Assembly: GCA_020343615.1 (NCBI GenBank)
Contig: CP070803.1
Location: 143,686 to 207,685, forward strand
Direction: 5' to 3'
Source: Candidatus Woesearchaeota archaeon
Lineage (GTDB): Archaea; Nanobdellota; Nanobdellia; UBA10117; GCA-020343615
DNA: 64,000 nucleotides
The notes below the pieces were generated by a model that saw only the letters and a program-made list of their open reading frames with translations, ran no database searches and was not told the DNA's origin. Below, piece by piece: positions 1 to 62,757 of the stretch (positions are counted from its first letter, which is position 1; each line of letters begins with the position of its first letter). The translations under genes and the position numbers were made by a program.

Positions 1-541
1 TGTAATGGGTTCTGGTGAAGCTTACTCTGGACTAATCCTACCTATTGAAGCTGAAGTGACTACAGGTGGTAAAAAAGAGGAATTTATTGCTACTGGTAAA
101 CTCGGAGAAATAGCTAAGGAAGCTATATCCAATGTATCTGCAATCATTAAGAAACACTTCGGTAAAGACTTAAAAGAAAAATATGATGTTTACGTTCAGT
201 TCTTACAAACATACGAGGGGCTTGAAGGAGATTCTGCATCTATTGCTGTGGCAATAGCCATTTTATCTGCCTTAATGAAAGCACCTATAAAACAAGATAT
301 CGCTATGACTGGTTCTCTTTCAATTAGAGGGGAAGTCTTACCTGTTGGAGGCGTTAATGCAAAAGTAGAGGCAGCAGTTGAGGCTGGTATGCAGAAGATA
401 ATAATACCTGCTTCTAATAGAGAAGATATCACCTTAGATAGTAAAAAAATAGAAATTATACCTGTGAAAAACGTAAAAGAAGTTATAAAATATGCTTTTT
501 CCGGTAAGGAAAAGGAGAGGATATTAAATAAATTCAAATGA
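1..541 (+). CDS. lon: Archaeal Lon protease (LonB), C-terminal S16 proteolytic domain; 5'-partial, the gene continues upstream of the window
   Basis: The translation contains [16 protein letters not shown] (catalytic Ser motif of the Lon S16 domain) and the conserved downstream PVGGV...AG segment. The ORF is open to the window edge. Confidence 0.8.
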
Positions 542-732
542 AATTAGAGATAAACTTGGATGAAGAACAAGTGAATAGGATTAAAAAATATGTAGAAGAA
601 GAAAGATTCAAAGATATTGATGATTTCCTCGAAAAGGCTGTTAAGTTGATGATGTATGCTGAAGACAAGAAGGAAGAATTTGGGTTAATTCTTCCTAAAA
701 AGCCTGGGGAAGATCAAGAAAAAGAAGATTAA
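538..732 (+). CDS. Small acidic hypothetical protein (64 aa), possibly ribbon-helix-helix-like
   Basis: Its start (ATGA) overlaps the lon stop. The N-terminus has an amphipathic beta-alpha-alpha pattern. No catalytic motif recognised. Confidence 0.35.
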
Positions 733-750
733 AATTAAATAATTCTTTTT

Positions 751-1359
751 TTATTCTTTTATAACTGGACAAACATAATTCATAAAGCATAAAGCGATTA
801 AAGCAGTTCCGTATCTCTTTTTCGGCACGAAACTCTTTGTTATTAACTTTATATCTCCTAGATTATATTTATCCATAAACCCACTAACGTACAACTCTTG
901 CAAACTTTCTCTTAAGGAGGCTACTGCTTTTGTTTCTGTATAGTTTCCATTGTATTCACATACAATCCCTCCATATTTTTGATTTGTTTCTTTGTCATAC
1001 AGCCATCCAAAGATAATGCCTGCTGTTGCTCTTTTTCCTTTTTTTGCAGTTGAACAAGCTATTATTGTCTCAACTACAGAACCATGAACTAGCTCTTCAG
1101 GGTTTGGTTTTTCTACTTCTTGTGAAATTGCCGGTAATATTGAAGAATATGTAATTATATTGCATCTTTCTATACCTGCATCCTTTAAGGCAAGATGATA
1201 AGAACCAGCATGAACTGTTATGTTTGATTCACCAACTCCAGAAGTTATAAAGAAATCTTTTGGCACTCTATTGCCAATTAATACGGATTTATTTTGAAAT
1301 CCTATACTAAGGGCAATGGTACGTACCCTTTGTTTTTTTGGTATGAACGTGAAGGTCAT
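751..1359 (-). CDS. pdaD: Pyruvoyl-dependent arginine decarboxylase (PdaD)
   Basis: FITSGVGES...HAGSYHLALKDAGIERCNIITYSSILP matches the PdaD proenzyme family, including the Ser-Ser self-cleavage region. I trimmed the start to the internal Met (MTFTFIPKK) because the longer ORF overlaps the serS start. Confidence 0.75.
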   Translation of the reverse strand: MTFTFIPKKQRVRTIALSIGFQNKSVLIGNRVPKDFFITSGVGESNITVHAGSYHLALKDAGIERCNIITYSSILPAISQEVEKPNPEELVHGSVVETIIACSTAKKGKRATAGIIFGWLYDKETNQKYGGIVCEYNGNYTETKAVASLRESLQELYVSGFMDKYNLGDIKLITKSFVPKKRYGTALIALCFMNYVCPVIKE

Positions 1360-1462
1360 TCTTTCCGGTTTTACTCTCACCTCGCGAAATGCGAAAATTC
1401 TATAAAGGGTAATTTCATTGTTTATAAAGTTTTTTATAGCGGTAATTAATTCAATATATATT

Positions 1463-21721: not shown

Positions 21722-21828
21722 TGCCCCCGACGGGATTCGAACCCGTGTCCATGGCTCGAAAGGCCATAATGACTTGCCCTCCTTTCAATTTCTCGAAAAA
21801 GAGTTTGGCCGGACTACACCACAGGGGC
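21722..21828 (-). tRNA. tRNA-Glu(TTC) with an intron of about 33 nt at a non-canonical position in the D-loop/D-stem
   Basis: Hand-folded as acceptor GCCCCTG/CGGGGGC, anticodon arm ATGGC-CTTTCGA-GCCAT, variable loop GGAC and T-arm ACGGG-TTCGAAT-CCCGT. The 5' part TGGTGTAGTCCGGCCAA...CATT matches an archaeal tRNA-Glu D-arm only after removing an internal insert. Confidence 0.6.
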
Positions 21829-53245: not shown

Positions 53246-56200
53246 CTAATCGCTTAAAGGAAGATAATCCGTGTTAGCAGAACAGTTGGAAATGATTCGG
53301 GTGTGCATTAAATCTGTGTTATTGTACCATGAAATTGACACATCTGAATCTGAAGTTGAATCTACTAGTCTTCCTTTCTTTACTGCTAAGTTTCTTCCAT
53401 TAGGATATCCTAACCAAGTAGAACCTGCATTTGCTAATTTTACACATGACCAACTACCTGCAGAATTATAACAGTATCTTAAATCATCATTTGTAGCATC
53501 ATAATGAGATATATATACAACATCATTGGAGTCTATTGCTATGCTTGTATCCCATCCAACGTCACCAGTGGTTTCTACATTCTCGCAGGTCCAAGAACCT
53601 CCAGAGTTGTTGCAGTATGATAGTGAACCATTATTCGAAGATACGTGGACAACATCATTGGAGTCTATTGCTATGCTAGTATGTTTACCACCATCTCCTA
53701 TTTGCTTGCAAGTCCAGGTTCCTCCAGAGTTGTTGCAGTATCTTAAATCATCATTACCAGCATCAGTATGAGAGATATGAACTACATTATTGGAATCTAT
53801 TGCTATGCTTGAACAGTCTCCGACCATACCTCCTAGGTCTACATTCTCGCAGGTCCAAGAACCTCCAGAGTTGTTGCAGTATCCTAACGAATAAACTACA
53901 GTAGCATTTTTGTGAGATATATGGACAACATCATTGGAGTCTATTGCTATGCTTGAAAATTCTCCGACAACACCATTAGTTGCTACATTATCGCAAGTCC
54001 AGGTTCCTCCAGAGTTGTTGCAGTATCCTAGATTACCTCCGGTTTCATTATAATATGATATATGAACAACATTAGTAGAGTCTATGGCTATGCTTGAATC
54101 GTATCCGACATTACCAGTAGTTTTTAAGTTCTTACATTCCCAATTTCCGTATGTTCCGTTACAGTACCCTAAATCATCATTTGTATCATTAAAGTAAGAT
54201 ATATGAATCATTCCGTTATAGTCTATTGCTATGCTTGAATACCTTCCTGTATCATTTTTTGACTCTACTGTTTCTGTACTACTTCCTAGCTGACACGCTC
54301 TGTCATTATACACATCATAAGCCTCATCACAGAAGCCATCATTATCATCATCGGTACAGTCATAATAATATCCGTCTCCAGAACCATTAATCCAAACATT
54401 ACCTCCTATATTGGTTCCAGAACCATAAATCCTATTTCCTGTTTTGTTTGTTGTATTAAAGTAATTAGGAGGGTTTGGGGGAGTTCCAGTAAAGCGTACA
54501 TTATCATAAGTTCCAGAATTATTTAGTAGACAATTGTATATTTGATTGTATTCAGGATAATCCGAACCACTTGGATCGAAATAGATTCCAGCCAAAGAAT
54601 TGCCTTTTATTGTTGAATTAGCTATAATATTATTGTCCGAATTGGAAGATAACCTAACTCCATAACTATTTGAATTGGTAATACTCTCTGAAATAATATT
54701 AGAATTTGAGTTATATAAAAAAATTCCATGTTGTGAATTTGAATTTGCAGTTACGTTTATGAAGTTATTGGAGTCTGAAGAATACATTTGAATTCCATAA
54801 CTATTTGAATTTGCGGTTATATTTGTGAAGTTATTGGAGTCTGAAGAAGACATATAAATCCCTACATATGATGAATATGAAGTTATATTAATAAATGTAT
54901 TGGAATTAGAATACATTAACATTATGTACTCATTATTTGAGTTATTTATATTTTCAAAATGTGCTCCATCTGTTTGAGCTATAATAATACCATTATTATC
55001 TATACTATCAGAACCTCTTATTGTTATATTATTTAAGTAAGAGTTACTTGCATTACATAAAATTATATGACTTATATTACCCTCCCAGTTTTGGATATTC
55101 ACAGTATCTTTATAGTACTTAATTGGTCTGTTCCCTGAACCTGTTATGTTTTCTATATGATTTTCACAATGATTATCTGTAGTAGTAGAAACGTATAAAT
55201 CCAGTTCGTTTTCTAAGAGTTTTGAATTAGTAATAGAACTACTATATGAATTTCGCAGATAAAATCCATATTGATTTGAATTTGCAGTTATATTTGTGAT
55301 ATTGTTGTAATCTGACATTATATAGACTCCATGTTGTGAATTTGAATTTGCAGTTACGTTTATGAAGTTACTGGAATCTGAATAAATAAAATAAATTCCT
55401 CGCCAATTTGAATTTGTGATTGTATCTTTAATAGTATTTTTGTCAGATGCACTAGTACTATAAATTCCATTAAAAAAGTCTGTGATTTTACAATTTAATA
55501 CAGTATTATTATCAGAACCTCCATTTGAATTATTTAACCAAATTCCATAATCTGTTGTTCCTGAATCATCTCCAGTAATATTATGCCCTTGACAGTCAAA
55601 TGTTACATCATCTGTTCCGTTAAAGTCTATACATCTTCCAGTTGTGGAGATATTATCAACCAAATAAATAGTATCTCCTGAACTTGCTTGACCAATCTCT
55701 GCGGTGCAGTTATCACAACTATAACAAAGAGCTCCTGCTAATTCAATAGTACAGGTAGCAGAGCAGCCATCTCCCCCTGTAGTACCTCCATCGTCACATT
55801 CTTCTCCACATTCTACTACATCATTTCCACAGAATTGGTCTAAACTGCAATCTCCATTACATCCTGGGTAAGGATCACAATCTACATTATTACCATCATC
55901 ACATTGCTCATCCCCTTCAGGATTATTATCACCACATATAGTAAGAAATACTACTTCAGTATCATATTCTCCTGTAGCTGATGTTGCTGATGAAAAATGA
56001 ATAGTATAGAAATATGTGGTTGACGCCTTTATATTACAAATAAAAGGATTTATTCGTATATATAAGGATACTGTTCCTCTAGCACTTAAATATTTTTCAG
56101 AGATATTCGCTTCAAAGGCTCCACCTGGTGAGAGATATTCGCTTTGACAAACTACTTCTCCACTTGGTTTATATATCTCTAACAACATATTTGACTCATT

Positions 56201-56440
56201 TAGTTTCATTCTTCTACTTCCTTTGTTTTTTATGTCTACTCTTAAGACATTATTTTTATACGACTCTGATAGAATTACAGGATTATATGATGTTAATGTT
56301 GTTGTTATGTCTCTTATTGCTTCCACTTCTCTTTCAGATGGTTGTATAGTCTTAACATAAAACAGAATTGATATAGATATTAATACTGTGAATATTGCTA
56401 GGATGATAATAGAGAGTATAGGGGTTAATCCTTTTTTCAT
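53246..56440 (-). CDS. Giant (1064 aa) membrane-anchored surface protein: Cys-rich module, right-handed parallel beta-helix repeats, and seven C-terminal propeller-like repeats of about 42 aa
   Basis: N-terminal anchor (LTPILSIIILAIFTVLISISILF); a Cys-rich DDGNNVDCDPYPGCNGDC..CGEECDDGG module; PbH1-like repeats (NITANSNSQHGVYI / NITANSNQYGFYL / NITANSNSYGIQM...); then 7x [SSIAIDSNDVVHISHxDAxNDDLRYCNNSGG(S/T)W(T/S)C] repeats. Confidence 0.7.
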   Translation of the reverse strand: MKKGLTPILSIIILAIFTVLISISILFYVKTIQPSEREVEAIRDITTTLTSYNPVILSESYKNNVLRVDIKNKGSRRMKLNESNMLLEIYKPSGEVVCQSEYLSPGGAFEANISEKYLSARGTVSLYIRINPFICNIKASTTYFYTIHFSSATSATGEYDTEVVFLTICGDNNPEGDEQCDDGNNVDCDPYPGCNGDCSLDQFCGNDVVECGEECDDGGTTGGDGCSATCTIELAGALCYSCDNCTAEIGQASSGDTIYLVDNISTTGRCIDFNGTDDVTFDCQGHNITGDDSGTTDYGIWLNNSNGGSDNNTVLNCKITDFFNGIYSTSASDKNTIKDTITNSNWRGIYFIYSDSSNFINVTANSNSQHGVYIMSDYNNITNITANSNQYGFYLRNSYSSSITNSKLLENELDLYVSTTTDNHCENHIENITGSGNRPIKYYKDTVNIQNWEGNISHIILCNASNSYLNNITIRGSDSIDNNGIIIAQTDGAHFENINNSNNEYIMLMYSNSNTFINITSYSSYVGIYMSSSDSNNFTNITANSNSYGIQMYSSDSNNFINVTANSNSQHGIFLYNSNSNIISESITNSNSYGVRLSSNSDNNIIANSTIKGNSLAGIYFDPSGSDYPEYNQIYNCLLNNSGTYDNVRFTGTPPNPPNYFNTTNKTGNRIYGSGTNIGGNVWINGSGDGYYYDCTDDDNDGFCDEAYDVYNDRACQLGSSTETVESKNDTGRYSSIAIDYNGMIHISYFNDTNDDLGYCNGTYGNWECKNLKTTGNVGYDSSIAIDSTNVVHISYYNETGGNLGYCNNSGGTWTCDNVATNGVVGEFSSIAIDSNDVVHISHKNATVVYSLGYCNNSGGSWTCENVDLGGMVGDCSSIAIDSNNVVHISHTDAGNDDLRYCNNSGGTWTCKQIGDGGKHTSIAIDSNDVVHVSSNNGSLSYCNNSGGSWTCENVETTGDVGWDTSIAIDSNDVVYISHYDATNDDLRYCYNSAGSWSCVKLANAGSTWLGYPNGRNLAVKKGRLVDSTSDSDVSISWYNNTDLMHTRIISNCSANTDYLPLSD

Positions 56441-56481: not shown

Positions 56482-56790
56482 TCACTCTATGACTTCTATT
56501 TCTATGTTAACGTCTTTTGGGATTGGTACTCTCATAATGAGATGCAGTGCTCTTTCATCAGCAGAGATATCAATTAATCTTTTATGAATTCTCATTTCAT
56601 ATCTTTCCCACGTTTCAGAACCCTCTCCATCGGGAGCTCTTCTTACAGGAACTTTTAATTTTTTTGTAGGTAAATTAATGGGTCCCTTGTAAGCTACGCC
56701 TACTTTTTTAGCTATGTCTACAATTTGAGAGCATATGCTATCTACTTTCTTTACTTCAGTGCTGTATAGGTTTATTCTTGCCTTTGGCAT
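56482..56790 (-). CDS. rpsJ: 30S ribosomal protein S10 (uS10)
   Basis: [50 protein letters not shown]...HKRLIDI matches uS10. Start placed at the MPKARI Met. Confidence 0.85.
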
Positions 56791-56888
56791 AGTAAGAATA
56801 AGTGAAATCAATCCCTTTAAAAAGCTTTAGTTGAACATATTTTTGTATTAGCAACCTTTTAAAGTATTAATTATTAATATATAACATA

Positions 56889-57227
56889 ATGGCTTGGTTT
56901 CATAAAAGTTTAAAGGATATGAAAGTTGCTATTGAGAAAGAAGACTGGAAGGAAGTTATCAAAATATTAAAACAGCATAATTCTCCCCGTGAAGATAGAA
57001 GAATAAGAAGTGATATTGGTGAAATAAGCCACACAATATCTGATTATCGCGAGCATATTCAACAGATATATGCAGCAATATATCAATATGCTGAAGGGAA
57101 AAGAACTTACGTAGAAAAATATGAGAAAGATCATATGCTACTAAAAGTCAATGCAGCTATTCGGTGTGCACTAAAATTTGAAGAAGTTATAAAACACCTT
57201 ATTAAAGAAGGGAAGTTTCTAGAATAA
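56889..57227 (+). CDS. Hypothetical small helical protein (112 aa)
   Basis: ORF only. Sits immediately upstream of the 1408-aa surface protein gene on the same strand. Confidence 0.4.
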   Translation: MAWFHKSLKDMKVAIEKEDWKEVIKILKQHNSPREDRRIRSDIGEISHTISDYREHIQQIYAAIYQYAEGKRTYVEKYEKDHMLLKVNAAIRCALKFEEVIKHLIKEGKFLE

Positions 57228-57258
57228 TTATTTAAGATTAGAACTGCTATATTATATA

Positions 57259-60200
57259 TTGATGTATCGTAGAGCTAACTTCAGTGTATTTATACTTGTA
57301 TCTATATTTATCTTTATACTTTTACTTCCATCTTTTTTTATACTCTTAAAATTTGATGGTTTTACATTATATCAAAGATTTCAAGAATATGAACCATGGA
57401 TTAGTATTACGGGTGTTACTGTTGCTGAAGATGTTATGATTATTAAAAAAAATTTTGAAGAGCCATTCTTATTTCCTATAACTTTAGAAAATCAGGAATT
57501 TATGGTGGTAGAACTGACAAACTGTATCTCTGTTGGTGAAGTCGGTGAACCAAGCCTTCCAGTATGTCCTGTTCATATTTTAATTTCGCAAAGTAAGGTA
57601 ATATCTAATGTTGATGTGGATTATTTTGATGAAACTAGGATAGATTATGACTTATCTAATAAACCAATAGTTCCTGCCCAAAAAGAAATTCCTATTAGTT
57701 GTGAAGATGTGCCTGACTTCGCCTTGAATCAGGAAATTTATAATTCGGATCAACCCGTCCCAGAACTAATTTATGAAAACAAGGGTACTGGGCTTATGGT
57801 TGGTTTTAACATCTTGACGATAAATTTGAATCCAGTTAGATACATACCTAAAAATGGAGAATTATATTATTATCCTAAAATGGAGATAAGTGTTACTTTA
57901 GCAGACGGGTTTGGTGCTGTTAGTGAACAAGAGAACAAATTTTTAAGATTAAAAGAAAGTGATGTTGATCGTGTTAGTTCTTTGATAGAAAACCCTTCCA
58001 CTATTTCTTCTTATTCTGTGCCTGTTGAATTTGGAACATTGGATGCTCCTCTGAATGGAAGTTGTACTTGTGATCCTACTAAAACATATGAATATGTGAT
58101 AATAACTGATGAGTCTCTATTAAATTCTAGTGGCTACAATTACAGTTGGTATGATTTAATAAATCACCGGAGAAACTATAGTGGTTTAAATGGAACAATA
58201 GTAACTGTACAACAAATTGAGAATTGTTCTGATTATCAAAACAATACTTATCCTTTCAATGATTCTGCTCATAGTATACGTGAATTCATTAAAGATGCTT
58301 ATCAAAATTGGGGTACTGAATACGTTGTATTAGGTGGGAAGTGGAGAGATGACACCCCTGCTGAAAAAATGGTTCAATATCGTTTATTCACAGATATTTA
58401 TGAAACGGGTACTTATGATACTATGCCTTGTGACTTGTACTACAGCAATCTTGACGGTGATTGGTGGTATTCTAATTATAGTGTATGGGGTGGCGGTAAG
58501 AACAGTCCAGTTAATGATAAGTTCTCAGAGATTTATGTAGGTCGTATAACTGCTTACGATACTGAACATGTTTCAAATGCTGTACGTAAAATAATTTGGT
58601 ATGATATTAACAATCATAGTGAGGAATGGTTAGTAACTGTTACATTTGCTGGTGCTAATCTAGGTTGGGCTGTCACTTCAAAACAATACATGGAAGAATT
58701 ACGTATAGGTAACGGATCGTATTCTGAAAATATTGGTTTTGAAGAATGGAACTCTAAACATTCATATTATCCATTTTATACGTTAGAAAATAGATATTAT
58801 CATGCTGATGATACGTGGAGTGATTTCTTAGAGTCTATAGAAAATGATACTAGTTCTATTGTAAATCATATCGGACATTCGAGTTGGAATACTCCTTTTA
58901 GTCTTACTAATTGGCAATTTAGAAATAATACTTTGCCCTTTTTTGGTTACTCACAAGGTTGTCTGGCGGGTAGATTTTCTAGTGGTTTCTCTGGTTGTGA
59001 ACAAACGATGTGCAGACATCCTGAAAAACACGCCTTTGCTGTAGTTCTGAACACAGGATACGGTTATGGTAGTTTTAGTTCTACTCACGGCGCGAGTCAG
59101 CAACTGCATAAGATATTTTGGGCTTATTTTTTTAATGAAGCAGAAAATAATTTAAGTGAGTGGGAATTAGGAAGAGCTCAGTCCTATTCTAAAGATGAAT
59201 TCTCTGCATATATTGATTCTAATCATGCAAAATGTTATGTGTGGTATAGTTCACATTTATTTGGCGATCCTGCACAAAAGCTAGAAATTGCTAGTGTAAT
59301 AAAATCGAATGGTGAATCTTGTTCTTACGAATATGAATGCCTGTCTGGATACTGTGAAGATAGAGTTTGTTGTTCATCTTCATGCGGTGTTTGTCAAGCA
59401 TGTAATATAAATGGTAGTAAAGGTAATTGTTCTAATTACACACAAGGTTCTGACCCAGATAATGAGTGCTCTACAGCTGAGTGTGGTATCGGATACTGTA
59501 ACGGTTTTGGTACTTGTGAAGTATATAGTGATGGTCTAAGACATAATTGTAGTAGTTGTTATTATTGTACCGACTTGGATGAGAGTTGTGATTTAGTACC
59601 TGATGGACAAGATCCTAACAATAACTGCGCTGGAGGAAATGGCACCTCAAATGGTTGTGCGGGAGATTACTGCGACGGTTCTGGCTCCTGTCAAATTATT
59701 AGTTCTGGGGAAGGTAACTGCCCTATTTGTACATTATGTCTAGATAATGATACTGAATGTGAATATTACTCTAATAACACCCAAGATAATGTGGGTAATT
59801 TAACTTGTTTTGGTATTTGTAAGAAATGTGATGGTCTAGGTCAGTGTATCAACCAAACCGCTGGAGAGGATATATTTGACCAATGTGATGCTAATCTAGA
59901 ATGCCATATTGGTATCTGTAATGGTCTTGGAGAATGTGATGTCTATTCTAATGGTGAAAAAGGCTCTTGTGGACCTTGTAAGTATTGTAATGATAGTGAC
60001 TCTAATTGTGAATATGTTCCTTCTGGGCAAGACTTATTTAGTGAGTGTGTTGGTTTGCAGTGTGATGGAGACGCTATAACTCCATATTATTGGGGTTGGG
60101 ACTCATTAACATGTTACTATAGTTCAAATATCTTTTCTAGAGATCACTATTGTGACGGTTCTGGCTCTTGTTATGCTGCTGAAGATTTATGTCCTTCACA

Positions 60201-61485
60201 AGGAAAGGATGGCTCTACGAATATTACTTGTAATTGTGCTGAAGCACTAACTGGTTGTAATGGAACTGTTGTTGGAAGCTGTCTAAATTGTGCTCCTCTG
60301 AATAATTCCGCCCCAACAGCCCCTATCCTTTTGTATCCTGCAGATGAAACTAATAATACTAATAATTCTGTAGATTTTGATTGGGATGATTCTATAGATA
60401 TAGATGGGGATAATATCTCCTATTATTTAGCAATAAATTCGTCGGTAAACTCTACTCAAATTACTTATAGTGTTATGGAATCAAGTTATTCTTCATATTC
60501 TACTATTGATAACGTAACATATTATTGGAGAGTAAAAGCTAGTGATGGTTTAGATAACAGTTCTTGGTCATCTACTTATAAATTTATAGAAATAATTGAA
60601 GTAGAAGAAGAACCTGAAGAGGAAGAAGATCAGACTCCTAGCGGAGGCAGCGGCTCTTCAGGAGGAGGTGGAGGTGGTAGTCCCTCTCCTATTCTCAGTA
60701 GTGCTTCAACAATAACCCCGCCCTCTATTAATTACGACTTATCTGAAACAAATGAAGAAGAGATTAAAGAAGTTGTTAAGTCTAAGCTTAGTGAAATAAG
60801 CAGCAACACTAAAGAAGTTTACAAAGATGTTTCAGTTGATGTGTCTGTTAATCATCCTAGCTCTGAAAGTACCTCTCTTGATTTTAGTTTTAAGTATGGT
60901 AAAGGTACGCCTCTAAAAAAAGTGATGATATTCATTGAAGTTCCTAAATCCTTTGCTGAATCTGCAGAAGATATAACTTTTGAGTCTAGTGTCCCTTATA
61001 GTAAAATGGAAGTTGTTGAAAATGATCCTGTTTATTATTTCTACTATGAAAATCTGGAATCTGAGAATATATCTTATTCTTTCCATAATAATGAATATAG
61101 TATAGGAAGCAAGGTCATTGAAGATGTAAGTCAACCATGGGTTTTCTTTGAAACTGAAGAAGAAGTTGTTCCAGAATGTGGTAATAATGTAATAGAAAAA
61201 GGGGAAGAATGTGATAGTGTTAGTGGACTAATTGAAGGTTATAGATGCTCTGCTGAATGCAAACTAGTTCCTATCCTTCAATGCATTGATGATGGGGATT
61301 GTACTCAAGAAGAAACAGAATTAGGTGAGTGTAATGACTGTTTAATTAGTACTCCTGCACCTACTAGTGCTTATGTTATATTATATCAAAAGTGGTTTGT
61401 TGTATTACTTATTATCTTTATAATATGTACTCTCATATTAGGACTTAAACTAGAAATTAAGAATAAGAAAAAAAGGAAGAAATAG
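57259..61485 (+). CDS. Giant (1408 aa) surface protein: N-terminal anchor, putative clan-CD (gingipain/C25-like) cysteine peptidase domain, Cys-rich EGF-like repeats, FN3 domain, Gly/Ser linker, and a C-terminal TM anchor with a basic tail
   Basis: N-terminal TM (FSVFILVSIFIFILLLPSFFILL). Candidate His/Cys dyad: VNHIGHSSW ... FFGYSQGCLAG, about 27 aa apart. Repeated CxxC..C..NC..GxGxCE modules. FN3-like APTAPILLYPAD...YYWRVKASDG. SGGSGSSGGGGGGSPSP linker. C-terminal WFVVLLIIFIICTLILGL-KLEIKNKKKRKK. Confidence 0.7.
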   Translation: MMYRRANFSVFILVSIFIFILLLPSFFILLKFDGFTLYQRFQEYEPWISITGVTVAEDVMIIKKNFEEPFLFPITLENQEFMVVELTNCISVGEVGEPSLPVCPVHILISQSKVISNVDVDYFDETRIDYDLSNKPIVPAQKEIPISCEDVPDFALNQEIYNSDQPVPELIYENKGTGLMVGFNILTINLNPVRYIPKNGELYYYPKMEISVTLADGFGAVSEQENKFLRLKESDVDRVSSLIENPSTISSYSVPVEFGTLDAPLNGSCTCDPTKTYEYVIITDESLLNSSGYNYSWYDLINHRRNYSGLNGTIVTVQQIENCSDYQNNTYPFNDSAHSIREFIKDAYQNWGTEYVVLGGKWRDDTPAEKMVQYRLFTDIYETGTYDTMPCDLYYSNLDGDWWYSNYSVWGGGKNSPVNDKFSEIYVGRITAYDTEHVSNAVRKIIWYDINNHSEEWLVTVTFAGANLGWAVTSKQYMEELRIGNGSYSENIGFEEWNSKHSYYPFYTLENRYYHADDTWSDFLESIENDTSSIVNHIGHSSWNTPFSLTNWQFRNNTLPFFGYSQGCLAGRFSSGFSGCEQTMCRHPEKHAFAVVLNTGYGYGSFSSTHGASQQLHKIFWAYFFNEAENNLSEWELGRAQSYSKDEFSAYIDSNHAKCYVWYSSHLFGDPAQKLEIASVIKSNGESCSYEYECLSGYCEDRVCCSSSCGVCQACNINGSKGNCSNYTQGSDPDNECSTAECGIGYCNGFGTCEVYSDGLRHNCSSCYYCTDLDESCDLVPDGQDPNNNCAGGNGTSNGCAGDYCDGSGSCQIISSGEGNCPICTLCLDNDTECEYYSNNTQDNVGNLTCFGICKKCDGLGQCINQTAGEDIFDQCDANLECHIGICNGLGECDVYSNGEKGSCGPCKYCNDSDSNCEYVPSGQDLFSECVGLQCDGDAITPYYWGWDSLTCYYSSNIFSRDHYCDGSGSCYAAEDLCPSQGKDGSTNITCNCAEALTGCNGTVVGSCLNCAPLNNSAPTAPILLYPADETNNTNNSVDFDWDDSIDIDGDNISYYLAINSSVNSTQITYSVMESSYSSYSTIDNVTYYWRVKASDGLDNSSWSSTYKFIEIIEVEEEPEEEEDQTPSGGSGSSGGGGGGSPSPILSSASTITPPSINYDLSETNEEEIKEVVKSKLSEISSNTKEVYKDVSVDVSVNHPSSESTSLDFSFKYGKGTPLKKVMIFIEVPKSFAESAEDITFESSVPYSKMEVVENDPVYYFYYENLESENISYSFHNNEYSIGSKVIEDVSQPWVFFETEEEVVPECGNNVIEKGEECDSVSGLIEGYRCSAECKLVPILQCIDDGDCTQEETELGECNDCLISTPAPTSAYVILYQKWFVVLLIIFIICTLILGLKLEIKNKKKRKK

Positions 61486-61488
61486 GTT

Positions 61489-62757
61489 TTATTTAGGTAC
61501 AACTTTAATACATCTTCCTGCAGCTACTGTTCTACCCATGTCTCTGATAGCTAACTTTGACATTTGTGGTACTTTGTCAGCTTCTTCTATGATTAATGGT
61601 CTTGTTGGTTCAACAGTAATTATTGCTGCGTCTCCAGGTTTAAGGAAATCTGGGTTTTCTTGTACAGTTGCTCCAGTTCTTGGATCAATCTTCTTATCTA
61701 GCTTCTTTATTGTACAAGATACCTGTGCAGTATTTACATGGAATACTGGACAGTAACCTGCGGTAACAACAGTTGGGTGACTTAGCACAATTATTTGTGC
61801 TTGGAATTCCTTAACTGGTTTAGGTGGGTTGTCAGCAGGTCCTAGAACATCTCCTCTTCTAACGTCTTCTTTACCTATACCTCTTACATTAATTCCAACG
61901 TTATCTCCTGGTTCTGCTTGCTGCATTTGTTCATGATGCATTTCTATGGATTTAATTTCTCCAGGTTTTCCAGAAGGCATTACTACAACTTTTTGGTTTA
62001 CTTTCATTATACCAGTTTCGATTCTACCTACTGGAACTGCGCCTATACCTTTAATTGTGTAAACATCTTGAATTGGCATTCTTAATGGTAAGTTTGTTGG
62101 TTTTTCTCCAGGCTTGAAGTCATCTAGTGCTTCAAGTAGGATTGGACCCGTATACCAACTCATGTTCTCTGATTTCTTAGCTACATTGTCTCCTTTTAAT
62201 GCAGCTGTAGGTATAAATTTAACTTCGTCTGCTTTATATCCAACGCTACCTAGTAATTTGACCATATCATCTTTTACTGCATTGAATTTTCCTTGATCAT
62301 ATTTTACTATATCCATTTTTGTGATAGCAATCATTATCTGAGGAATTCCCAGAGTCTTTGCTAGGAATAAGTGCTCCCTAGTCTGCTCCATAACTCCATC
62401 ATTAGCAGCTACACAAAGAACTGCAGCGTCTGCTTGTGATGTTCCTGTAATCATGTTTTTAATGAAATCTTTGTGTCCTGGTGCATCAATGATTGTAAAG
62501 TAATTTTTTTGAGTTTCAAATCTCTTATAGGCTAGGTTAATTGTAACTCCTCTTTCTCTTTCTTCTTTTACTTTATCCATTACGAAAGCGAATTCAAAGC
62601 CTGCTTTACCTAACTCTTGTGCTTCTTTTTTGTGCTTCTCTAACTCTGTTGCTTCAATTGACCCTGTGTCGAATAGTAATCTACCTACTGTTGTACTCTT
62701 TCCATGGTCTACATGACCTATGAATACTAAATTTATGTGTGGTTTTTTGTCAGCCAT
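61489..62757 (-). CDS. tuf: Elongation factor 1-alpha (aEF-1alpha)
   Basis: G1-G4 GTPase motifs (GHVDHGKST; DAPGH; NKMD) and overall EF-1alpha architecture. Confidence 0.95.

Follow-up and report, generated by a model that had tools for sequence, protein, structure and literature searches.

A gingipain-family (C25) cysteine peptidase precursor predicted to be tethered to the cell surface of a Candidatus Woesearchaeota archaeon

The described systems that come closest to the gene treated here are the gingipains RgpB and Kgp of Porphyromonas gingivalis (PDB entries 1cvr, 4ief, 4rbm and 5mun), the type IX secretion sortase PorU (PDB 6za2), which belongs to the same family and has the same fold, with a prodomain-like N-terminal part, and the exported C25 peptidases of Thermoplasmatota, including those of Thermoprofundales (MBG-D, for Marine Benthic Group D), for which a role in extracellular protein degradation is presumed. 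Exported gingipain-like C25 peptidases are documented and expressed in Thermoprofundales/MBG-D and have been reported for Bathyarchaeota as well, and in some sediments the genes for exported peptidases are dominated by C25 members (PMC6461988, PMC6752024). In incubations followed by stable isotope probing with protein (protein-SIP), the strongest labelling of any group was seen for Woesearchaeota, although their metagenome-assembled genomes (MAGs) contained few extracellular peptidases (PMC8359207). In the literature naming both Woesearchaeota and gingipain we found, as far as we checked, no published description of a C25 peptidase in Woesearchaeota. Here we describe a gene for such a protein on a 64,000-nucleotide stretch of contig CP070803.1 of a Candidatus Woesearchaeota archaeon; this whole stretch is called the window, and all positions refer to it. 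Exported archaeal C25 enzymes are already known, and the finding overturns nothing in current understanding; what is new is the Woesearchaeota host lineage and the uncurated Cys-rich tail on which the protease is mounted.

Sequence profiles and a predicted structure assign the N-terminal region of the encoded protein to the gingipain family C25, with a caspase-like alpha/beta fold. Pfam detects both the propeptide (PF08126, Propeptide_C25; E 4.8e-12, 45.9 bits against a curated cut-off of 22) and the peptidase (PF01364, Peptidase_C25; E 7.2e-43, 147.7 bits against a cut-off of 23), the latter over model positions 1-374 of 374. A phmmer comparison of the full protein with the PDB gave chance matches only (linker matches and one weak disintegrin-like match), and a profile of homologs was needed. 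With residues 1-690 as query, a word-indexed search returned 83 homologs carrying both C25 domains, and an alignment and a profile were built from 52 diverse homologs. Against the PDB this profile found RgpB (1cvr) with an E value of 1.6e-29, Kgp with about 1e-22, PorU with 1.3e-16 and both gingipain prodomains, and in profile matches of the prodomain the Kgp prodomain (5mun) was found at E 2.7e-21 and that of RgpB (4ief_A) at E 2.4e-8.

The AlphaFold2 model of residues 1-690 has a mean predicted local distance difference test score (pLDDT) of 88.3 and a predicted template modelling score (pTM) of 0.88. When it was compared with known structures by Foldseek, all 13 matches with E<=0.001 were gingipain prodomains, gingipain catalytic domains or PorU, and no other fold was significant. 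The catalytic matches (1cvr, 4ief, 4rbm and 6i9a) had E values of about 1e-12 (1.3e-12 for 1cvr), with PorU at 2e-6, and the prodomain matches had TM-scores of 0.74-0.76 normalised to the target (0.74 for 4ief_C). A preliminary description, made from the letters of the window and its open reading frames (ORFs), had proposed a gingipain-like (clan CD) cysteine-protease domain in this protein. Pfam, profile and fold searches bear this out, and in the profile and structure searches it had called for, the C25 gingipain fold is the only one to which the N-terminal region is assigned.

The predicted catalytic dyad lies in the two motifs to which that description had drawn attention, VNHIGHSSW and FFGYSQGCLAG; the catalytic His is the second one of the former motif, and its spacing to the Cys is 28 residues, where about 27 had been given. 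Conservation of the pair among homologs, on which the assignment had been made to depend, is high: His540 is invariant (52/52 homologs) and Cys568 is present in 51 of the 52, the remaining sequence having a gap at this position. Counted by hand along the profile alignments, His540 aligns with RgpB His211 and Kgp His444, and Cys568 with RgpB Cys244 and Kgp Cys477. In the AlphaFold2 model, the two residues are preceded by beta-strands 534-538 and 561-565, respectively, as expected for clan CD. The dyad is also kept in both orthologs for which this region is available. It thus seems likely, as part of the overall explanation developed below, that the protein is a cysteine endopeptidase acting through the predicted His540/Cys568 pair. 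The GenBank entry, UCD04242.1 ('hypothetical protein JSW73_01220' of Candidatus Woesearchaeota archaeon, on a 919,475-bp contig), can on the basis of these sequence comparisons be re-annotated with confidence as a predicted C25 family cysteine peptidase precursor, with the catalytic residues named.

The similarity to the gingipains extends to the order of prodomain and catalytic domain, to the fold and to the positions of the dyad; like the gingipains, the protein is predicted to be an exported surface enzyme, with a zymogen as its probable first form. The identity to the gingipain structures is only about 15%, however, and the host is an archaeon. The immunoglobulin superfamily (IgSF) domain, the haemagglutinin/adhesin domains and the C-terminal domain for the type IX secretion system (T9SS) that gingipains possess are all lacking, and Pfam and NCBIfam gave no Por_Secre_tail or T9SS match in the protein. 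Gingipains are anchored through A-type lipopolysaccharide (A-LPS), whereas the protein described here is predicted to be anchored by a transmembrane (TM) helix. It differs from PorU by the lack of a T9SS context and by being closer to the gingipains. The Thermoplasmatota enzymes are the closest relatives of its prodomain and catalytic region, with 37-51% identity, and it nests inside them; many of them have 1200-1900 residues and, at the C-terminus, a TM helix followed by a basic tail. Their tails are either dockerin-like or composed of PKD/FN3 domains and a TM helix. The genome of the present host, a Woesearchaeote of the DPANN group, is much smaller than theirs. The features of the gene are collected in Table 1.

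Table 1 Features of the C25 peptidase gene and its product (positions in the window; residues counted from the TTG codon)
Feature	Position	Residues	Strand	Remarks
Whole gene	57259..61485		+	1408 residues counted from TTG at 57259
N-terminal export/anchor segment	57259..57357	1-33	+	Basic n-region MYRRAN, then 23-residue hydrophobic helix
Gingipain-type N-terminal prodomain	57397..58044	~47-262	+	Propeptide_C25 over residues 61-225
Peptidase_C25 catalytic domain, clan CD alpha/beta fold	58093..59283	279-675	+	
Predicted catalytic His540 codon	58876..58878	540	+	Second His of VNHIGHSSW (residues 535-543)
Predicted catalytic Cys568 codon	58960..58962	568	+	In FFGYSQGCLAG (residues 561-571)
Cys-rich stalk	59314..60294	686-1012	+	Copies of 8-Cys unit
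FN3/Ig-like beta-sandwich module	60301..60594	1015-1112	+	
Acidic (EEEPEEEED) and Gly/Ser-rich linker	60595..60723	1113-1155	+	Direct sequence reading; low pLDDT
Alpha/beta domain, no family	60724..61158	1156-1300	+	AlphaFold2 pLDDT ~90
Acidic Cys cassette	61159..61362	1301-1368	+	CGNNVIEKGEECD...C..EC.L then CIDDGDCTQEETELGECNDC
TM helix and cytoplasmic basic tail KNKKKRKK	61390..61482	1378-1400 (helix), 1401-1408 (tail)	+	Hydropathy

The reading frame of 1408 codons that had been reported for this position is present on the plus strand. The probable true start is the ATG at 57262, which as codon 2 directly follows the TTG; the product counted from this ATG has 1407 residues and is identical to UCD04242.1. 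A candidate TATA box is the A/T-rich element TTATTTAA, which lies upstream of the ATG at a distance of about 30 nt. A scan for sigma-70 promoters found 26 where 26.0 were expected, which is a chance result, and the sigma-70 model is not applicable to an archaeon. The N-terminal segment is hydrophobic by hydropathy, is modelled by AlphaFold2 as a helix at residues 4-29 and is kept in ortholog L054, from another metagenome; it is predicted to serve as a Sec signal peptide or, if uncleaved, as a signal anchor. The protein contains 35 NxS/T sequons, about twofold more than shuffled sequence (16.4 +/- 3.7), and this excess would fit a glycosylated archaeal surface protein. In comparison with L054 all domains are under purifying selection, with ratios of nonsynonymous to synonymous substitution rates (dN/dS) of 0.13-0.41, the value for the catalytic domain (0.14) being nearly the lowest. 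Three syntenic orthologs come from independent metagenomes, which likewise speaks for a functional gene. In GC content the gene (34.5%) matches the window (33.2%). The C25 gene is resident and functional, and not a product of misassembly.

The catalytic domain is followed by a Cys-rich stalk, with 48 Cys within residues 677-1012. Its unit has 8 Cys in about 45-70 residues, in the pattern C-x2-C-x2-C ... C-[DN]-G-x-G-x-C, and is present in four full and one or two partial copies; between residues 709 and 971 the motif C-[DN]-G-x-G-x-C occurs five times and C-x2-C-x2-C four times. Cys-rich repeats downstream of the protease domain had been noticed before, and about five copies of the 8-Cys unit are indeed there, but the label 'EGF-like' then given to them finds no support. 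No Pfam or NCBIfam family, EGF-type families included, matched residues 676-1015 even at E<=10, and an identity as EGF-like repeats is rejected for a unit that has 8 Cys and starts with C-x2-C-x2-C. The AlphaFold2 confidence is mostly low across the stalk. An exhaustive HMMER search with the tail showed that the repeat is present in 54 of the 150 best tail matches, with up to 28 copies per protein. Its carriers (among P0085-P0233) reach several thousand residues, and the repeat is also found together with Laminin_G_3, carbohydrate-binding module (CBM) family CBM96, FG-GAP or Lcl_C domains. The 8-Cys repeat is thus widespread and uncurated, and it is a candidate for a new domain family.

Residues 1015-1112 form an all-beta unit in the AlphaFold2 model (pLDDT >90), with a weak PDB profile match to the chitinase FnIII domain 1k85 (E 0.003) and weak Foldseek matches to chitinase and CBM sandwiches. 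That this is an FN3 domain, as had been suggested, finds support only in the sense of a generic FN3/Ig-like beta-sandwich, to which the model points and so do homologous modules in protein P0093 that match fn3, Big_13 and Ig_Rha78A_N; the segment's own profile matches (the N-terminus of Pfam DUF4962 at E 1.4e-4, and Pur_ac_phosph_N) are sub-threshold. Modules of this type are present in 92 of the 150 best tail matches, with up to 29 copies per protein. Other searches with the tail were less informative: a PDB profile search was dominated by Gly/Ser-linker artefacts from single-chain variable fragment (scFv) chains, Foldseek gave generic beta-sandwich matches only, and the word-indexed search returned two bacterial FN3 proteins only.

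The Gly/Ser linker of the preliminary description was found at residues 1127-1140, and the further domain that it placed behind this linker is the confidently modelled alpha/beta domain of residues 1156-1300. This domain has no Pfam or NCBIfam match and no informative structural match in Foldseek. It is 85% identical to that of the ortholog, with a dN/dS of 0.19, and homologous stretches occur in P0137, P0140, P0151, P0158 and P0165. The acidic Cys segment behind it (CGNNVIEKGEECD...C..EC, residues 1307-1340) resembles the TIGR02232 myxo_disulf_rpt of myxobacterial and other secreted proteins and the disintegrin-like pattern CGN..E.GEECD. The match to TIGR02232 (E 0.0035) lies below the cut-off of that model, however, with a weak disintegrin-like match as well, and in the present protein the motif belongs to a conserved cassette of larger size directly before the TM anchor. 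This cassette starts with the alpha/beta domain, which is followed by CGN..E.GEECD, by C[VI]DDG.C..EE..L.C.DC once or twice, and by a TM helix with its basic tail.

Among the 150 best tail matches, the arrangement of alpha/beta domain, Cys cassette and TM helix is found in five other proteins, in which the acidic Cys motif is conserved directly before the TM helix. The carriers are beta-helix, FG-GAP and C25 proteins, and the five include a second C25 peptidase (P0165). Two beta-helix carriers are encoded in tandem (L057, 5663-14272) on an archaeal contig of 1.17 Mb, where genes for Alba and an ATP-dependent DNA ligase are found as well. The cassette may be a lineage-specific anchoring module; it is widespread and uncurated, and could be defined as a new domain family. 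The C-terminal TM helix and its KNKKKRKK tail are present as claimed, by hydropathy and sequence, and both are kept in orthologs P0084 and L058. The statement that this is not a PGF-CTERM or LPXTG signal stands too: the sequence ...STPAPTSAYVILYQKWFVV... contains neither PGF nor LPXTG, and a scan of residues 1300-1408 against NCBIfam at E<=10 gave no hidden Markov model of a sorting signal, only myxo_disulf_rpt and one chance match. A role as a substrate of an archaeosortase or sortase (PGF-CTERM, PEF-CTERM, LPXTG) is rejected, as there is no sorting motif before the TM helix.

The host is a Candidatus Woesearchaeota archaeon (DPANN) whose genome has about 0.9 Mb. The DNA of the window belongs to the core of an archaeal chromosome, with genes for Rad50/Mre11, MetRS, SAHH, aIF-2B, MCM, tRNAs, EF-2, EF-1alpha and ribosomal protein S10. 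The EF-1alpha encoded next to the C25 gene has a 100% identical counterpart in a Woesearchaeota MAG, on the 919-kb contig from which UCD04242.1 comes, and its next-best named matches, at 65-74% identity, are all labelled Woesearchaeota, Nanoarchaeota or 'archaeon'. The exhaustive HMMER search with the tail detected a full-length ortholog (P0084) that is 74% identical, has the same architecture and has the dyad intact. Between the genes for EF-1alpha and S10, and on the strand opposite to theirs, are the C25 gene and a small ORF upstream of it, and in two independent metagenome contigs of close relatives (L054 and L058, the latter with an EF-1alpha that is 93% identical) a C25 ortholog is found at the same EF-1alpha junction. 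More distant Woesearchaeota, with EF-1alpha proteins that are 73-74% identical, have at this junction two small ORFs (L059) or a gene for a major facilitator superfamily (MFS) transporter on the opposite strand (L060). The EF-1alpha-S10 junction of the archaeal str cluster (window 56482-62757) is a variable insertion site in this lineage. The small upstream ORF, of 112 codons (56889-57227, plus strand), ends 31 nt before the C25 gene, on the same strand, and its product gave no significant Pfam or NCBIfam match.

The protease module and its host do not have the same relatives. The labelled relatives of the module are all from Thermoplasmatota, at 31 loci and with 37-51% identity; Cloacimonadota come next, with 25-28%. 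In a neighbour-joining tree the present protein and P0084 nest among 29 Thermoplasmatota-labelled sequences, with bootstrap values of 79, 87 and 100 on the enclosing clades. A pattern-limited scan of 185,579 species genomes matched no other DPANN genome. When window neighbours and tail were compared by tblastn with 53 related loci, neither synteny nor a common tail was found. At their C-termini the Thermoplasmatota homologs have either dockerin-like modules or a TM helix plus basic tail; neither the 8-Cys repeats nor the combination of alpha/beta domain and Cys cassette was present in any of the 29 complete ones examined. That a membrane-tethered protease of this size would be unusual, as had been stated, does not hold: many of these homologs have 1200-1900 residues with a TM helix and basic tail, so that large size and membrane tethering are nothing out of the ordinary for a C25 enzyme. 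It is by its host lineage and its tail that the present protein stands apart. The nesting in Thermoplasmatota, the lack of another DPANN match in the scan and the position of the gene at a junction that holds other cargo in relatives suggest that a narrow Woesearchaeal lineage has probably acquired a Thermoplasmatota-type C25 module horizontally, with later fusion to a local surface-anchoring tail. In evolutionary terms, a catalytic module would apparently have been borrowed from Thermoplasmatota and mounted on a tail that is typical of small-genome archaea.

From these data we consider it likely that the product of the gene is a cysteine endopeptidase of a Woesearchaeota (DPANN) archaeon that belongs to MEROPS family C25, is made as a zymogen, is tethered to the membrane and acts outside the cell. 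The protein would be exported by the Sec system, with both basic termini in the cytoplasm according to the positive-inside rule and the bulk of the polypeptide outside, where it would be N-glycosylated and disulfide-bonded. By analogy to RgpB and Kgp, the prodomain would occupy the active-site cleft and keep the enzyme latent, and its removal would also free the enzyme from the N-terminal anchor. The active protease would then sit on a non-enzymatic stalk of about 700 residues, held by the C-terminal helix, and may cleave external proteins, either detrital or derived from neighbouring or host cells, to peptides that could be taken up by an organism with a genome of about 0.9 Mb and presumably limited biosynthesis. 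The enzyme is a concrete candidate for how some Woesearchaeota reach protein directly.

Several points weigh against this explanation or parts of it. In the profile alignments of the loops, the S1 residue of RgpB that gives Arg specificity (Asp163) falls on Ser487, and the S1 residue of Kgp for Lys specificity (Asp516) falls in an insertion after Tyr601-Gly602, so that neither has a conserved equivalent in these alignments. The prodomain column that holds the inhibitory Arg of RgpB (in "ISRAEN") and the inhibitory Lys of Kgp (in "MSKSDD") is Ile146; the two gingipain residues, which by offset counting we take to be the published inhibitory Arg126 and Lys129, share one column in a prodomain-only profile, where I, L, F or Y is found in most members of the clade. 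The combination that characterizes gingipains proper, an acidic S1 residue with a matching prodomain Arg or Lys, was thus not found, a result that is provisional as it comes from loop alignments. Because the acidic S1 residues are not conserved and Ile146 occupies the inhibitory column, a P1 preference other than Arg or Lys is weakly suggested; for the same reason no specificity can be deduced from the gingipains, and the latency mechanism is argued by analogy only. Furthermore, the prodomain motif G-[IV]-G-Y-C-R-G-[YF], which the Thermoplasmatota clade keeps nearly invariant and to which an Arg of each of the two gingipain prodomains aligns, is replaced: at the position of GYCRGY (window 57790-57810, residues ~178-184) the protein has GLMVGF and ortholog P0084 has GFMNGF. 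With respect to the origin of the gene, the C25 tree is a simple neighbour-joining tree rooted on Cloacimonadota, with taxon labels given by the MAG depositors, and the rarity of the gene in DPANN rests on the pattern-limited scan. Absence from the word-indexed search with residues 1-690 is weak evidence, because this search missed both the protein's own entry and the 74% identical ortholog P0084, which are in the collection.

Many DPANN archaea are episymbionts, and with a Woesearchaeote of about 0.9 Mb as host, a role in interaction with a host or partner cell, put forward in the preliminary description, must be weighed as well: a protease on an adhesive stalk that would cut or remodel the S-layer or surface proteins of an attached cell, opening or maintaining a contact site. 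Interaction would then be its main function, in place of nutrition in general. The tail modules, which recur up to 28-29 times in giant surface proteins with lectin, CBM, beta-helix or FG-GAP domains, are typical of adhesins, and a neighbouring gene codes for another large beta-helix surface protein. However, the closest catalytic relatives are found in Thermoplasmatota sediment lineages that are tied to detrital protein degradation (PMC6461988, PMC6752024), and Woesearchaeota take up label from added protein (PMC8359207). We therefore regard this role as possible but rather unlikely, and it would not exclude a nutritional one, as the two are not mutually exclusive. A variant that combines it with processing, and that we consider improbable, is that the enzyme is part of a so far unrecognised system of archaeal surface proteins, in which the cassette marks a set of DPANN surface proteins and the stalk-mounted C25 protease processes these or cuts the envelope of a partner cell at the contact site. 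If this were true, the protein would not be a feeding protease but a PorU- or gingipain-like enzyme for maturation and attack in episymbiosis, obtained horizontally from Thermoplasmatota. A strictly PorU-like processing peptidase or sortase has even less probability; it would cleave the C-terminal cassette as a signal from other surface proteins of its own cell, perhaps with re-attachment of these proteins, as PorU does in type IX secretion of bacteria. PorU is a C25 member that was found by both profile and fold searches, and the cassette is common to several unrelated surface proteins in related small archaeal genomes. Against this, the similarity to gingipain (106 bits) exceeds that to PorU (63 bits), type IX secretion is a bacterial system, the cassette is also found on the protease itself, the 64-kb window contains no other cassette-bearing ORF, and close Thermoplasmatota homologs have dockerin-like or plain TM tails without cassette-bearing partners. 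An identity as PorU equivalog is rejected on the score with the NCBIfam T9SS_sortase model (NF033707), which is 34 bits against a cut-off of 420.

Two further explanations would remove either the enzyme or the host from the picture, and we give both very little credence. The protein might be a pseudo-protease without catalytic activity, its only role being that of an adhesin or a structural protein of the surface. The loss of the GYCRGY motif, the absence of the acidic S1 residues of gingipains and the very large adhesin-like tail could be quoted for this; but the dyad is retained in the protein as well as in the two orthologs, the dN/dS of the catalytic domain is 0.14, and the Pfam match spans the whole model, which makes this idea hardly credible. 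The least probable explanation is that a Thermoplasmatota gene was wrongly joined to a Woesearchaeota contig during assembly or binning. All of the closest labelled relatives of the catalytic domain are indeed from Thermoplasmatota, but the gene lies inside a 919-kb contig and adjoins an EF-1alpha gene with Woesearchaeota, Nanoarchaeota or 'archaeon' matches, the same junction is present in two independent metagenome contigs, the GC content of the gene matches that of the window, and the tail is common to other small-genome archaeal proteins and not to the Thermoplasmatota homologs.

Two other features of the window deserve mention. The neighbouring gene for a large surface protein (53246-56440, minus strand) codes for 1064 residues, and the N-terminus of its product, MKKGLTPILSIIILAIF, resembles an archaeal class III (pilin-like) signal. 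This protein contains acidic Cys repeats (TIGR02232, E 3e-10) and a NosD/right-handed beta-helix region, and it ends in at least four tandem repeats of about 47 residues, G..SSIAIDSN.VVHISY......LGYCNNSGG.WTC (located via SSIAID), to which no family is assigned; two or three further divergent copies are visible by eye. Elsewhere in the window, on the minus strand at 21722-21828, there is a 107-nt Rfam tRNA match of 50.5 bits that was not reported by ARAGORN and that probably represents an intron-containing archaeal tRNA.

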